Virus record (IMG/VR): IMGVR_UViG_2541047926_000004
Span: 1-48,685 of that record
DNA: 48,685 bases
Reading direction: 5' to 3' (one strand)
Source: a virus
Taxonomy: Duplodnaviria > Heunggongvirae > Uroviricota > Caudoviricetes
Shown here: piece by piece, positions 6,789 to 9,516 of the stretch
Layout: each line of letters opens with the position of its first letter
Position numbering within the stretch: the stretch's first letter is position 1
Notes under the pieces: model-generated
Told to the model about the DNA's origin: nothing
Seen by the model: only the letters and a program-made list of their open reading frames with translations
Database searches by the model: none
Program-made: the position numbers and the translations under genes

Positions 6789-6829
6789 AATAGCTATTGC
6801 TATTGGTGGCATCAATACTTATTGCTATT
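6789..6829. promoter_or_regulatory. OL-like operator repeats
   Basis: Near-palindromic AATAGCTATTGCTATT (6789..6804) and TTGCTATT (6822..6829); same 8-mer recurs twice in the cI-cro intergenic region. Confidence 0.4.
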
Positions 6830-6952
6830 AATTAATGTGTTTTGATATCAAATGTTTGATAGCAAAAAGAATTTATTTTGTGACTTGCATCGCATAGCGA
6901 TAACTGAAGCGAGGTTGTGGTGGTTTTTTGAACGGTGTGTGATGAGGGGAGG

Positions 6953-6980
6953 CAAAAAAAACCCGGCACGGTGGCCGGGT
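6953..6980 (-). terminator. rho-independent terminator closing the cI-proximal cassette
   Basis: On the minus strand: hairpin CCCGGCCACCGTGCCGGG followed by a run of eight U, directly after the stop of the 293-aa gene. Confidence 0.5.
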
Positions 6981-6992
6981 TAGTTGTGAGCA

Positions 6993-7874
6993 TTAGGCTG
7001 CTGTGTTTAAAATAATACTTGCAGCTTGTTCTACAGAGTTTACAGCTGTAATAGATATATCGTAAGTATAAGCAAGATCTTGAAGTGCTAAGAAAGCACT
7101 CTTAATGGATGCAATGTTTTTATCAGTATAAGCAGGGTTATCATCCTCAGGTTTATAGATTATAAGTTTATGAGTATCGCGAGGGAATATATCGCCATGT
7201 TTTTTTATCATTGATAAATCAGAGATTTTTGCCTTTCCATCTTTTACTTGTTCGGTTAAGTTATGCGGAAGTAATTTTCCAGTGTTGATGGCCGCATGGT
7301 CGCTCAGATAAAATATCTTTGCAGGTCGATGCCCATCGCTAAAACTAAATTGTCGATTGAAGAATATATTTCTTCTGTTATCTTTATTTATGACAGCATC
7401 GAGTAGTTGCGTTGACCATCGATCTTTTTCCCTCGAATTACTAGAGCGTTTTTTTACATGATTATTTTCAATTTCTAGAAGCGAGGATAAGCTAGATGAT
7501 AGAGCAACCGCCTGTCGCAATATACCTGTAACACTAGCAGACACGGCTTGTCGAGGAGTGCTCAATGTAATGCCTGAGATAGGAGGAACCCATCCGGAAA
7601 AATTTTTATTATTTTCAAGGTGATATTGAAGGCTGTTTGAAATAACCTCAATCATGCGATTGAAAGAAGACGCTCTGAATCCGTACATGGCTTCGATAAC
7701 TTCTTTCCTTATTGCTGGCTTTACGAGAACATCTCCGTTGGACGTTACCACAGCGACTATGACAGTCAGTCTTTCACCCGAACCTACCATTGGCTCAAGA
7801 TATACAGACGCCCAGCTACCTGTTGAGGTTGGCATCGCTGGTGCTGATTTCAAGAGTTGATCAAGGTTTAGCAT
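6993..7874 (-). CDS. hypothetical protein, gene 2 of the cI-proximal cassette
   Basis: 293 aa, ATG start overlapping the stop of the upstream kinase-like gene by 14 bp; no recognisable domain; AT-rich codon usage. Confidence 0.55.
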   Translation of the reverse strand: MLNLDQLLKSAPAMPTSTGSWASVYLEPMVGSGERLTVIVAVVTSNGDVLVKPAIRKEVIEAMYGFRASSFNRMIEVISNSLQYHLENNKNFSGWVPPISGITLSTPRQAVSASVTGILRQAVALSSSLSSLLEIENNHVKKRSSNSREKDRWSTQLLDAVINKDNRRNIFFNRQFSFSDGHRPAKIFYLSDHAAINTGKLLPHNLTEQVKDGKAKISDLSMIKKHGDIFPRDTHKLIIYKPEDDNPAYTDKNIASIKSAFLALQDLAYTYDISITAVNSVEQAASIILNTAA

Positions 7875-8625
7875 TGTAATTTATCTGTGTCTGTTTCGGT
7901 TTTATCTGCTCATATAGTATGTCACCAAGTACCTCTATTCTAGCAGAAAGGAATGATAACATCTGGTTCTTGGGTTTAGTGTGAACACTGGCATAAATCT
8001 CTTCATCTAATTTTTCGATAGAATCTTGTTTACAAGATGATGCCCATGCTCGAGCATCATTTGCTGCCATTTGGATAGCAATTTCATTGTTGCGATCTAT
8101 TAAGTCATTTGCAAGTTGAAGCAGTTGATTTGAATAGTAATCTATACCAGTTTGGTCTGGAGATAATCCAGGAGGGATTGCAGTTTCGTGATCAATCAGA
8201 ATAAAGTCGTCACCATTAAATAGTAAATTTCCATTATGACGATCATCCATTGCAATCCATTCATCAAAATAGGCTGCTTTTTGCAATAGAGGCCATGATT
8301 CCAGTGCCTTAAGAACTCCAGAATCAGATGAATTGCTGATGAACTGCGTAAAGCTGGGGTAAGCGGTATCAATACTCCCAAAAAAAGGTTGGTTGTTATT
8401 ATCAAATAGTAATACTGGTTCTGGAATCGGAAGAGAGAGCAACCTACCAAGTGCAGCACAAGTAATTTCGGTGGCGATACCTCTGTTTGAAAGTTGCTTC
8501 GCAAAAACAATGACTTCTTCTACATCTCCAGACTCAGACTGAAGAATTGCAGCACCTTTAATTGGGCGATGGTGTCCTTCTTCAATAACAATTCCGCCAG
8601 GAAGCAGTCTTCCTACTCTAATCAC
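7861..8625 (-). CDS. putative HipA-like Ser/Thr kinase-fold protein, gene 1 of the cI-proximal cassette
   Basis: 254 aa, GTG start with GAGGT upstream; catalytic-loop-like DDRHNGN (DxHxxN) followed 17 residues later by ILIDHE; upstream E-x5-A-x2-G...PIPEP stretch resembling the HipA C-terminal domain. Confidence 0.5.
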   Translation of the reverse strand: MIRVGRLLPGGIVIEEGHHRPIKGAAILQSESGDVEEVIVFAKQLSNRGIATEITCAALGRLLSLPIPEPVLLFDNNNQPFFGSIDTAYPSFTQFISNSSDSGVLKALESWPLLQKAAYFDEWIAMDDRHNGNLLFNGDDFILIDHETAIPPGLSPDQTGIDYYSNQLLQLANDLIDRNNEIAIQMAANDARAWASSCKQDSIEKLDEEIYASVHTKPKNQMLSFLSARIEVLGDILYEQIKPKQTQINYNAKP

Positions 8626-8745
8626 GGATATTACCTCAACTCAATCTATCGTAATGTATCAAAAAATTCTGTAACATTGCCTTTATGGGCTTTCAAAAAA
8701 CTATCTATCAGTCCATGCTCAATTAAGCCATCGCGAATTACATTT

Positions 8746-9438
8746 TCATCCATGCTTTCTGTATGTCTGCGGCATGCTCCCAATAACCTTACCGAATATG
8801 AATACCCGGTTCATCTCATCTTTCTCGATCGGGTCCCACGGTGAGTAGCTTTTGTTATCAGAGATAACCAGCAGCTTATCCTTCATCATTTGCAGGCGCT
8901 TTACATGGGCTGTGTCGTCGTACAGAAACGCATAGATACCATCACCGTCGAAAGATTTAACCGTGATATCAACGAATAGAAGATCACCAGGTTCAATCGT
9001 TCCTGACATGCTGTCACCGCGTACGTTAATGATGCGGATATTTTCTGCCTTCCTACCATCGAACATGTGACGAGCATCGTCAAACGAGTACTCAACCGAG
9101 CGTAGAACTTCTACAAACTCACGGTTGATGACTCCCGGCCCGGCACTGACTTCTATATCAAGAACGTCAATCTTGAAGTATTTGGAGTGGTTGACAGCAG
9201 GCTTTCCTGATTGTTGACCGTCATTTCTCATCGGGCCTATGCCTGATGAAAGCCACTCTGTTCGAACACCCAATGCATTAGCTATTTCAACAATTTTTGT
9301 TGAGCCGCGCGCGTTGCCGCTTGTCAGTCTCCAGATAGTGGGTTGAGCTACGCCAGACGCCTTTGCAAGAGCGCCTTGAGACATTCCAGATTGTTCCATC
9401 GCTAGGTTTAAGCGATCAGCAAGAGTTTCTTTTTTCAT
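8746..9438 (-). CDS. cI: CI-type prophage repressor (HTH plus S24 LexA-like peptidase domain)
   Basis: HTH (MSQGALAKASGVAQPTIWRL) and S24 signature (VRGDSMSGTIEPGD); ATG at 9438; track ORF extends to a TTG at 9474. Confidence 0.85.
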   Translation of the reverse strand: MKKETLADRLNLAMEQSGMSQGALAKASGVAQPTIWRLTSGNARGSTKIVEIANALGVRTEWLSSGIGPMRNDGQQSGKPAVNHSKYFKIDVLDIEVSAGPGVINREFVEVLRSVEYSFDDARHMFDGRKAENIRIINVRGDSMSGTIEPGDLLFVDITVKSFDGDGIYAFLYDDTAHVKRLQMMKDKLLVISDNKSYSPWDPIEKDEMNRVFIFGKVIGSMPQTYRKHG

Positions 9439-9450
9439 AAGTTTTAATTT

Positions 9451-9516
9451 ATACGCTTGCGTATTGATGGTCAAAACACGTTTTGCTATTGATTTTGGTT
9501 AATACGCATTGCTATT
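9451..9516. promoter_or_regulatory. OR-like operator/promoter region between cI and cro
   Basis: Palindrome ATACGCTTGCGTAT (9451..9464); TTGCTATT at 9483..9490 and 9509..9516; AATACGCATTGCTATT semi-palindrome. Confidence 0.45.

Follow-up and report, generated by a model that had tools for sequence, protein, structure and literature searches.

Predicted operators of a lambda-type lysis-lysogeny switch on both sides of a phage immunity region

The immunity region of a phage with a lambda-like backbone is bordered by two clusters of 16-bp sites that share one sequence pattern. In the OR cluster, three dyad-symmetric sites at 9450, 9475 and 9501 lie between the divergent cI (minus strand) and cro (plus strand) genes, as in lambdoid switches. 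The second cluster, OL, has the same sites over a predicted leftward promoter, PL, beyond accessory genes, which is also a lambdoid arrangement. We predict that the sites are operators of a lambda-type lysis-lysogeny switch and are bound by cI and Cro, and we put the probability of this reading at roughly 85%. To judge from the sequences, the operator family most likely represents a common immunity type with an ordinary lambda-style switch, and its specificity is most likely shared with the Salmonella phages ST104 and BTP1. The features are collected in Table 1; positions refer to the window, the whole stretch of 48,685 nucleotides (48.7 kb) that was analysed.

Table 1. Sites, predicted promoters and genes of the immunity region. 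Bit scores are from the weight matrix built from other genera.
Feature	Position	Strand	Sequence	Remarks
Immunity-specific OL block	6782..6880			Replaced as a unit in PhiR5_1
Predicted PL	6787..6815	minus		-35 TTGATG (6815-6810), 17-bp spacer, -10 TATTAT (6792-6787); toward kil, gam, bet, exo; consensus match
OL1	6789..6804		AATAGCTATTGCTATT	16-bp dyad over PL -10 and spacer; 23.6 bits; equivalent in all relatives
OL2	6814..6829		AATACTTATTGCTATT	2-bp overlap with PL -35; 25 bp from OL1; 21.3 bits; conserved in relatives
OL3 position (tentative)	6834..6849		AATGTGTTTTGATATC	Degenerate in this phage, <2 bits
OL4 candidate (tentative)	6858..6873		GATAGCAAAAAGAATT	Weak variant, 6.0 bits; inverted repeat with OL2
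Intrinsic-terminator-like hairpin	6960..6981	minus		End of leftward cI-cargo operon
cI repressor, 230 aa	8746..9438	minus		Pfam HTH_3 N-terminal and Peptidase_S24 C-terminal domains
Predicted PRM	9446..9474	minus		-35 TTGACC (9474-9469), 17-bp spacer, -10 TAAATT (9451-9446)
OR3	9450..9465		TATACGCTTGCGTATT	Overlaps PRM -10 and spacer; 16.0 bits; conservation 0.99
OR2	9475..9490		AACACGTTTTGCTATT	Abuts PRM -35, 2-bp overlap with PR -35; 17.3 bits; conservation 0.97
Predicted PR	9489..9518	plus		-35 TTGATT (9489-9494), 18-bp spacer, extended -10 TGcTATTAT (-10 9513-9518); toward cro
OR1	9501..9516		AATACGCATTGCTATT	Overlaps PR spacer and -10; 22.6 bits; conservation 0.97
OR4 candidate	9530..9545		AATACCAATAGGAATT	Between PR and cro; covers cro Shine-Dalgarno AGGA
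cro, 75 aa	9550..9777	plus		YdaS-family helix-turn-helix protein
cII equivalent, 181 aa	9802..10347	plus		YdaT family

The original prediction was that an 8-mer, TTGCTATT, repeated at the OL and OR positions, provides repressor half-sites. Its copies are present as described, at 6797-6804, 6822-6829, 9483-9490 and 9509-9516, the first within the near-palindromic AATAGCTATTGCTATT (6789-6804). Operator half-sites at OL and OR are supported by five computational tests, but the unit is a 16-bp dyad and not the 8-mer. This dyad is the pseudo-palindrome AATA(G/C)-N6-(G/C)TATT, of which TTGCTATT is the right half and the commonest half-site, and within clusters the sites are spaced 25-26 bp apart. 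A palindrome, ATACGCTTGCGTAT, that had been taken for a separate element does occur at 9451-9464, but it is OR3, the third site of the same family, and the half-site AATACGCA that it contains recurs unchanged as the left half of OR1. All four cluster copies of TTGCTATT are on the plus strand. We discounted this bias, which is not kept in relatives, as meaningless because the relatives' OL1 is inverted.

Searches with the 16-bp pattern return to the same two places. The pattern AATAS-N6-STATT has three exact matches in the window, all in OL or OR, and six of its eight matches with at most one mismatch are located there. The assignment of the repeats to OL and OR positions is borne out by their match over the predicted PL, PR and PRM hexamers and by matrices trained on one cluster that find the other: with an OR-only weight matrix, OL1 and OL2 come third and fifth among all sites of the window, and with an OL-only matrix OR1 comes fourth. 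A matrix whose 25 training sites all come from other genera, which is not fully independent because the relatives' sites were found with a window-seeded matrix, gives six matches of at least 15 bits, all six in the two clusters. The best score outside the clusters is 10.1 bits, and shuffled sequence yields a mean of 0.145 matches at this level.

Some 20 prophages, representing 12 or more genera of enterobacteria, share this operator layout, and operator columns are 93-99% conserved versus 68-75% for spacers. The relatives compared were 18 loci whose cI N-terminal domains show 72-82% identity (Kluyvera, Citrobacter, Enterobacter, Pluralibacter and Raoultella among other genera) and a more distant Pantoea locus (54% identical). 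Three sites stand at -27, -52 and -77 from the cI ATG in all 18 close loci, one nucleotide closer in Pluralibacter; at the Pantoea locus only the outer two of the three OR sites exceed the cut-off of the site scan. An OL cluster lies 0.9-3.2 kb downstream in 19 of 19 loci. In this phage, 2.7 kb spanning cI and a two-gene cargo cassette separate OL1 and OL2 from OR. One extra spacer base makes the OR2-OR1 spacing 26 bp in the window versus 25 in relatives, and the predicted PR spacer is 18 bp here versus 17 bp.

A heteroimmune phage, PhiR5_1, connects the operators with the repressor. In an alignment, it shares 6690-6781 and 6881-6982 near-identically, with 6782-6880 replaced. Also replaced is 9302-9807, which holds the cI N-terminal domain, OR and cro, so that operators and DNA-binding domain have been exchanged together. 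In PhiR5_1, OL and OR alike carry a repeat peculiar to that phage, GGTTGTT/AAAACAACC. The recognition helix of cI (residues 31-37) reads AQPTIWR, and no phage with these operators departs from it, even where overall identity falls to 51%. Phages with other operators, PhiR5_1 and HK639, read SQAAIQK or SQPAIQK. By this comparison, the recognition helix tracks operator type. The rest of cI has the features of a helix-turn-helix repressor with LexA/S24-type self-cleavage: a predicted cleavage site at Ala99-Gly100, GDSM from residue 141 (Ser143) and VKR from residue 179 (Lys180). The closest solved structure to its N-terminal domain is that of 434 repressor (E = 1.6e-5 to 1e-4).

Another regulator could act on the sites, either Cro alone or the YdaT-type CII, with cI acting elsewhere. 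Cro and CII are helix-turn-helix proteins too and are encoded beside OR, and the YdaT protein of CP-933P binds inverted repeats (PMC9986795). We nevertheless consider this unlikely. Neither OL nor OR contains the CP-933P YdaT motif, TTGATT-N6-AATCAA, and the CP-933P protein binds at the end of ydaS rather than between the divergent genes. BTP1 and a Klebsiella phage combine the same operators and the same cI helix with another CII, of lambda type. Operator type follows the cI helix, and no further site family besides the 16-bp dyads was seen in OR. CP-933P, from E. coli O157:H7, pairs a YdaS-type Cro with a YdaT-type CII. Footprinting has located its operators at OR as well as at a promoter resembling PL; it has four repeats at even spacing, and its repressor gene is leaderless (PMC8630535, PMC9986795). 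It shares the Cro and CII families with this phage, whereas its repressor, PaaR2, is unrelated to the S24-type cI. Its operator consensus, GTTTAGTAA, is unlike that of this phage and is absent from OL and OR.

A consensus scan puts PL, PR and PRM exactly over operator sites, with sites on the -10 and -35 hexamers of PR and PRM. The promoters match the consensus at only 9 of 12 bases, and promoter-like sites are fewer in the region than in shuffles (five versus a mean of 7.7), so that position is the only argument for these three promoters. The hexamers of PR and PRM are conserved in 20 lineages, those of PRM at 98-100%. Alternatively, the repeats might be shared promoter architecture only, with paralogous PL and PR, repetition of the extended -10, TGCTATTAT, and of the sequence beside it, and no repressor recognition of the 8-mer. 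Indeed, GCTATTAT provides the -10 of both PR and PL, and the OL and OR regions are AT-rich, at 25-29% GC. However, OR2, OL2 and OR3 bear the motif away from any -10 hexamer, the TTGCTATT half of OL1 points away from PL, and the sites are dyad-symmetric with a regular 25-bp spacing. PhiR5_1 swaps the whole block, not hexamers alone, together with the cI DNA-binding domain, and the recognition helix co-varies with the motif. We therefore regard a purely promoter-based origin of the repeats as very unlikely.

The same comparisons bear on the start of cI, for which ATG 9438 had been favoured over TTG 9474. The TTG forms the first three bases of the PRM -35 hexamer, and the 7 nt from the PRM -10 to the ATG vary freely in relatives. 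Moreover, a 1-nt deletion in Pluralibacter leaves the upstream TTG in the wrong frame, with two stop codons. These observations indicate that cI starts at ATG 9438. The distance of 13 bp given for the palindrome also agrees: counted from the A of the ATG (9438-9436, minus strand), the palindrome begins 13 positions away, with 12 bases (9439-9450) between. Because the PRM -10 ends 7 nt before the ATG, we expect a cI mRNA with little or no leader, which would start at or beside its AUG.

Enrichment in the window had been proposed as a check on the 8-mer, and a similar frequency elsewhere as grounds for abandoning it. The window contains six copies versus 2.07 expected, a count reached in 1 of 100 shuffles, and the only two further copies (24922 and 44272) both lack the left half-site. 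Chance occurrence in AT-rich intergenic DNA, which low local GC and those two additional copies might suggest, is effectively refuted by shuffles that keep the local composition (two 8-mer copies per block, P = 0.0008 for OL and 0.0004 for OR; full number of 16-bp sites, 0 of 5,000) and by the fixed positions of the sites in ~20 lineages.

If the sites are operators, cI dimers and the YdaS-type Cro would recognise the 16-bp pseudo-palindromes. Bound at OR1 and OR2, which cover the predicted -10 and -35 of PR, cI would turn off cro and the early-right operon. OR2 is directly upstream of the putative PRM -35, a position from which bound cI could activate transcription from its own promoter. At OR3, over the predicted PRM -10, excess cI would exert negative autoregulation and Cro would cause shut-off. 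On the left, at a distance of 2.7 kb, the predicted -10 and -35 of PL are covered by OL1 and OL2. RecA-stimulated self-cleavage of cI at Ala99-Gly100 would then release repression. What the analysis shows directly is the sites with their spacing and conservation, and their co-variation with the DNA-binding domain of cI. We infer that cI and Cro bind them, in what order they are filled, that PRM is activated, that OL and OR loop, and what the weaker sites OR4, OL3 and OL4 do.

The resemblance to lambda includes divergent cI and cro, three dyad operators over PR and PRM, an S24 self-cleaving repressor, a second cluster over PL ~2.4-2.7 kb away across accessory genes, and a leaderless cI mRNA, as predicted here (textbook; PMC8630535). 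Unlike lambda, this phage has 16-bp sites of different sequence, a cI N-terminal domain that is 434-like in sequence, an all-helical YdaS-type Cro, a YdaT-type CII and possibly four sites per cluster. As with 434 repressor, a dimeric helix-turn-helix protein would read short outer dyad arms around a loosely specified centre. The 434 operators are 14 bp long (ACAA-N6-TTGT), and the 434 recognition helix is QQSIEQ versus QPTIWR in this phage. Coliphage HK639, with 52% identity in the N-terminal domain of cI, has three sites at the same positions from the cI ATG, 24-25 bp apart, and its own motif recurs at its annotated pL. Its specificity differs, however, with ATAAC-N4-GTTAT sites and the helix SQPAIQK.

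No N-like ORF was found in this phage. An Arg-rich in-frame extension upstream of kil (6594-6713) was considered, but it has no ribosome-binding site, its PHROG match is limited to the Kil part, and variation is too low for a coding test; we treat it as chance. Because the N gene is missing and HK639 has an annotated putL antiterminator RNA, a put-type RNA was sought downstream of PL. There is no similarity to HK639 putL, no counterpart was found, and the fold is unexceptional (z = -0.49). An Rfam scan of 6200-10000 for known RNA elements gave only a sub-threshold miRNA match.

The nearest known type is that of ST104 and BTP1 (also SE1 and ST160), which are P22-like podoviruses of another host genus, Salmonella. 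Their cI N-terminal domain is 77-78% identical and has the same helix, AQPTIWR. OR2 of BTP1 is identical to that of this phage, and OR1, OR3, OL1 and OL2 differ by a few bases, scoring 15-21 bits with the window matrix. The Cro family, the site positions and a cargo slot downstream of cI (bstA in BTP1) are also the same. BTP1 differs in having an N gene and a lambda-type CII. A working rule predicts the same specificity for repressors at least 92% identical (PMC2629481), a level that these N-terminal domains do not reach. This rule of thumb would make the two different types, but helix and near-identical operators suggest otherwise. ST104 has been listed as its own repressor type, aligned with no experimentally determined specificity (PMC2629481). 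Two BTP1 papers (PMC5322425 and PMC7067206) do not describe its operators, and the papers examined on ST104, epsilon34 and BTP1 describe none for this immunity type. A full-text search for the operator strings gave unrelated papers only, and our literature search found no experimental description of the shared binding specificity.

The extra sites OR4, OL3 and OL4 are less certain. The OR4 candidate scores 14.6-17.8 bits, although it is in no matrix's training set, and its conservation is 0.93. Of the 18 close relatives, 17 (all but Pluralibacter) have an equivalent at -105 or -106 relative to the start of cI, and the more distant Pantoea locus has an OR4-like site at -112. OR4 falls within the transcribed leader of cro and covers the ribosome-binding site there, and overlap with the Shine-Dalgarno sequence could explain part of this conservation. 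The OL3 position holds a strong site in many relatives, for example AATAGCAATTGCTATT. An OL4 equivalent, GATAGCTAAAGGAATT, is kept in relatives; transcription from PL is predicted to start ~85 bp downstream of the candidate here. It is possible, though rather doubtful, that the type combines four sites per cluster (versus three in lambda), including a conserved AGGAATT-arm variant class (OR4/OL4), with a single specificity for phages of both the lambda-like and the P22-like kind, in E. coli, Salmonella, Klebsiella and 10 or more further genera. If cI or Cro binds OR4 and OL4, the circuit would include a post-initiation or roadblock element on PR, and the 4+4 looping geometry would be nearer to that of CP-933P than to that of lambda.

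These operators do not reveal a new regulatory principle. They define a putative operator set, promoters and a repressor start for a type that includes the clinically studied Salmonella phage BTP1. The 16-bp consensus and the helix AQPTIWR should be usable in work on prophage induction, superinfection immunity and cross-genus homoimmunity. The operator analysis also shows exactly where the cargo slot between cI and OL, which receives varied defence or toxin cassettes, begins and ends. A megablast search of E. coli genomes with the 111-bp OL block gave 35 matches, a count that we discounted as uninformative because the query is too short and AT-rich. The immunity type is present in 718 of 5,426 complete E. 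coli genomes (~13%).

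The two sides of the immunity region, OL (left) and OR (right), share a family of 16-bp pseudo-palindromic sites of the form AATA(G/C)-N6-(G/C)TATT. The original prediction reported the 8-mer TTGCTATT on both sides of the region, and its positions (6797, 6822, 9483 and 9509) hold. The window contains six copies versus 2.07 expected, and neither of the two copies outside the clusters (24922 and 44272) has a matching left half. Because both host regions are AT-rich (25-29% GC), the enrichment test was redone by dinucleotide shuffling of each block by itself, which gives two copies by chance with P = 0.0008 on the left and P = 0.0004 on the right. 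Extending the 8-mers leftward produces 16-bp sites that align in register. Thus, TTGCTATT is a half-site, as proposed, but the true unit is the 16-bp dyad. Similarly, the palindrome ATACGCTTGCGTAT is indeed located at 9451-9464, but it is not the separate element it was thought to be, because it occupies the same 16-bp frame as the other sites. On the opposite strand, its right half-site reads AATACGCA, which is also the left half of the site at 9501. Counted from start to start, neighbouring sites are 25 bp apart on the left, and 25 and 26 bp apart on the right. The degenerate dyad has three exact matches in the window, all within the two clusters, as are six of its eight one-mismatch matches.

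Features of the probable operator regions and adjoining cargo slot (site names by analogy with lambda; promoters from a consensus scan)
Feature	Position	Strand	Sequence or description
OL1	6789-6804		AATAGCTATTGCTATT; 16-bp pseudo-palindrome
OL2	6814-6829		AATACTTATTGCTATT; 16-bp pseudo-palindrome
OL3 position	6834-6849		degenerate in window; palindrome TTTGATATCAAA in its place
OL4 candidate	6858-6873		GATAGCAAAAAGAATT; GATAGCTAAAGGAATT in relatives; conserved, OR4-like
OR3	9450-9465		TATACGCTTGCGTATT; originally predicted palindrome, same dyad frame
OR2	9475-9490		AACACGTTTTGCTATT; 16-bp pseudo-palindrome
OR1	9501-9516		AATACGCATTGCTATT; 16-bp pseudo-palindrome
OR4 candidate	9530-9545		AATACCAATAGGAATT
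Predicted PL	-35 6815-6810; -10 6792-6787	-	TTGATG, 17 bp, TATTAT
Predicted PR	-35 9489-9494; -10 9513-9518	+	TTGATT, 18 bp, TATTAT; TG before -10
Predicted PRM	-35 9474-9469; -10 9451-9446	-	TTGACC, 17 bp, TAAATT
Cargo cassette between cI and OL	6993-8625	-	two overlapping genes
Intrinsic-terminator-like hairpin after cargo	6960-6981		

Weight matrices link the two clusters. A symmetrised matrix built from the three right-hand sites alone places the two left-hand sites at ranks three and five across the entire window, and one built from the left-hand sites alone ranks OR1 fourth. A multi-genus matrix of 25 distinct sites, all from other genera, finds six matches of at least 15 bits, every one within the two clusters, and scores 10.1 at most elsewhere; these training sites were found with a window-seeded matrix, but that they sit at fixed distances from cI is a regularity independent of it. 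Whole-window block shuffles yield a mean of 0.145 such matches (maximum 2), and the observed site counts were reached in none of 5,000 shuffles that keep local composition.

Three predicted sigma-70-like promoters overlie the sites. OL1 covers the -10 element and spacer of predicted PL (leftward early), and OR1 does the same for predicted PR (rightward early), while OL2 and OR2 touch the respective -35 elements. OR2 also adjoins the -35 of PRM, the predicted cI promoter, and OR3 overlaps its -10. Because the promoters are consensus matches, and the scan found no overall surplus of promoter-like sites, the case for them is one of position and conservation. When 20 distinct right-hand regions are aligned, conservation is 93-99% in operator columns and 98-100% in promoter hexamers, against 68-75% in the drifting spacers. 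The OR2-OR1 spacer of the window (9491-9500) has one base more than in 19 relatives (26 versus 25 bp between sites), which also makes the PR spacer 18 bp long instead of 17 and may change cooperative binding or PR strength.

The original preference for the ATG at 9438 as the cI start, over the TTG at 9474, is upheld. This TTG forms the opening triplet of the conserved PRM -35 hexamer, and relatives differ freely in the seven bases that separate the PRM -10 from the ATG. In Pluralibacter, the loss of 1 nt there takes the TTG out of frame, and there are two in-frame stops. RefSeq likewise annotates the 230-aa form. Because these 7 nt contain no Shine-Dalgarno sequence, the cI mRNA is predicted to be leaderless, like those of lambda cI and of paaR2 (PMC8630535) from CP-933P, an E. 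coli O157:H7 prophage.

Of 5,426 complete E. coli genomes, 718 carry the segment 9300-9780 (cI N-terminal domain, OR and cro) with an identity of at least 95%, O157:H7 strains among them; therefore, this immunity type is very common. The segment is also found in coliphages PhiR68_2, 4A7, Lambda_4C10, D2, 1W, 3W and Perceval, in which the genes between cI and OL differ. Salmonella phages ST104, BTP1 and SE1 have more distant cI N-terminal domains (77% identity), as do a Klebsiella phage (74%) and phage Fraca (69%). A survey of one genome per species produced 19 further loci, 18 of them with 72-82% identity in this domain (Kluyvera, Citrobacter, Pluralibacter, Huaxiibacter, Enterobacter, Yokenella, Pseudescherichia, Scandinavium and Raoultella) and one, from Pantoea, with 54%. 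In all 18 close loci, three sites begin at -27, -52 and -77 from the cI ATG (-26, -51 and -76 for Pluralibacter). The Pantoea sites are displaced (-33 and -82), and only two exceed the score cut-off. A second cluster lies 0.9-3.2 kb downstream in all 19 loci, at a distance set by cargo size.

The sites are exchanged together with the DNA-binding domain of cI. The heteroimmune phage PhiR5_1 is ~92% identical overall to 6200-6982, and is near-identical at 6690-6781 and 6881-6982, but has unrelated sequence in place of 6782-6880. A second swapped block, 9302-9807, covers the N-terminal domain of cI, OR and cro but leaves the cI C-terminal domain in place, and the two replaced blocks have their own common repeat, GGTTGTT/AAAACAACC. 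In coliphage HK639 the layout is the same, but its three right-hand sites and annotated pL carry ATAAC-N4-GTTAT. The cI recognition helix tracks operator type: it is AQPTIWR in every phage with AATA(G/C) operators, including Pantoea (51% overall identity) and Fraca (68%), and SQAAIQK in PhiR5_1 and SQPAIQK in HK639, both at 49-52% identity. Among the indirect evidence for recognition of these sites by cI, this co-variation is the strongest.

Further sites are candidates only. OR4 scores 14.6-17.8 bits, though absent from all training sets, and is present 28-29 bp beyond OR1 in 17 of 18 close relatives, with a similar site in Pantoea. On the predicted cro transcript it would span roughly +5 to +20. 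It includes the cro AGGA, so its conservation may partly reflect a ribosome-binding constraint. Many relatives have a strong OL3 20 bp beyond OL2; at 6841-6866 the window instead has the table's palindrome and a near-repeat, TTTGATAGCAAA, 14 bp apart. OL4 scores only 6 bits, and its right edge extends into sequence that PhiR5_1 also retains. From the OL block to the cargo terminator (6881-6982), ~100 bp are >90% identical in PhiR5_1 and contain the palindrome ATCGCATAGCGAT. A 43-aa ORF at 6852-6983 (+) has no family match.

The cargo genes encode a 254-aa HipA_2-like kinase (Pfam E = 4.7e-7; weak PADLOC match PDC-M66A) and a 293-aa protein (phrog_21150), and this exact cargo is found in only four of 5,426 complete E. 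coli genomes. Phages of the same immunity carry BstA (BTP1), a ParA-like gene (Klebsiella phage) or an ASCH-domain gene (4A7 and some E. coli prophages), and heteroimmune relatives carry HipA/HipD (PhiR5_1) or GevT/GevA (PhiR47_2). No ORF resembling an N antiterminator lies between predicted PL and kil (6303-6593). The leader there (~190 nt within 6510-6790) is 98% identical even in a heteroimmune phage, and has no Rfam match, likeness to HK639 putL or unusual fold. The kil reading frame extends upstream, and this extension includes 10 residues rich in Arg, probably by chance.

The architecture is that of lambda, and membership in this known kind of switch, rather than a new mechanism, is well supported. 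The closest specificity is that of the P22-like phages ST104 and BTP1. In a 2008 comparative paper, ST104 forms a separate repressor type and is aligned with no experimentally determined specificity (PMC2629481), and two BTP1 papers make no mention of operators (PMC5322425, PMC7067206). A full-text literature search with the operator strings, thin on subscription journals, returned nothing relevant; an older description may exist. By analogy with lambda and CP-933P, cI and Cro would bind the sites and PR and PL would be repressed, PRM would be activated from OR2 and autorepressed through OR3, OL and OR would loop across 2,712 bp, and the switch would be open to SOS induction. The cI protein (HTH_3 and Peptidase_S24 domains; nearest solved structure of the N-terminal domain, 434 repressor) has Ala99-Gly100, GDSM (serine) from residue 141 and VKR (lysine) from residue 179, motifs from which RecA-stimulated self-cleavage would be expected.

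The window phage shares a YdaS-family Cro and a YdaT-family CII equivalent with CP-933P, whose operators differ and whose switch logic was shown by experiment (PMC8630535, PMC9986795). A perfect TTGATTTGCGATAATCAA, matching the motif footprinted by CP-933P YdaT (TTGATT-N6-AATCAA), lies at 13735-13752 in a promoter-like intergenic stretch upstream of an ORF at 13917. It may mark a CII-controlled promoter or, because the two YdaT proteins are only distantly related (E = 4e-4), may be a coincidence.
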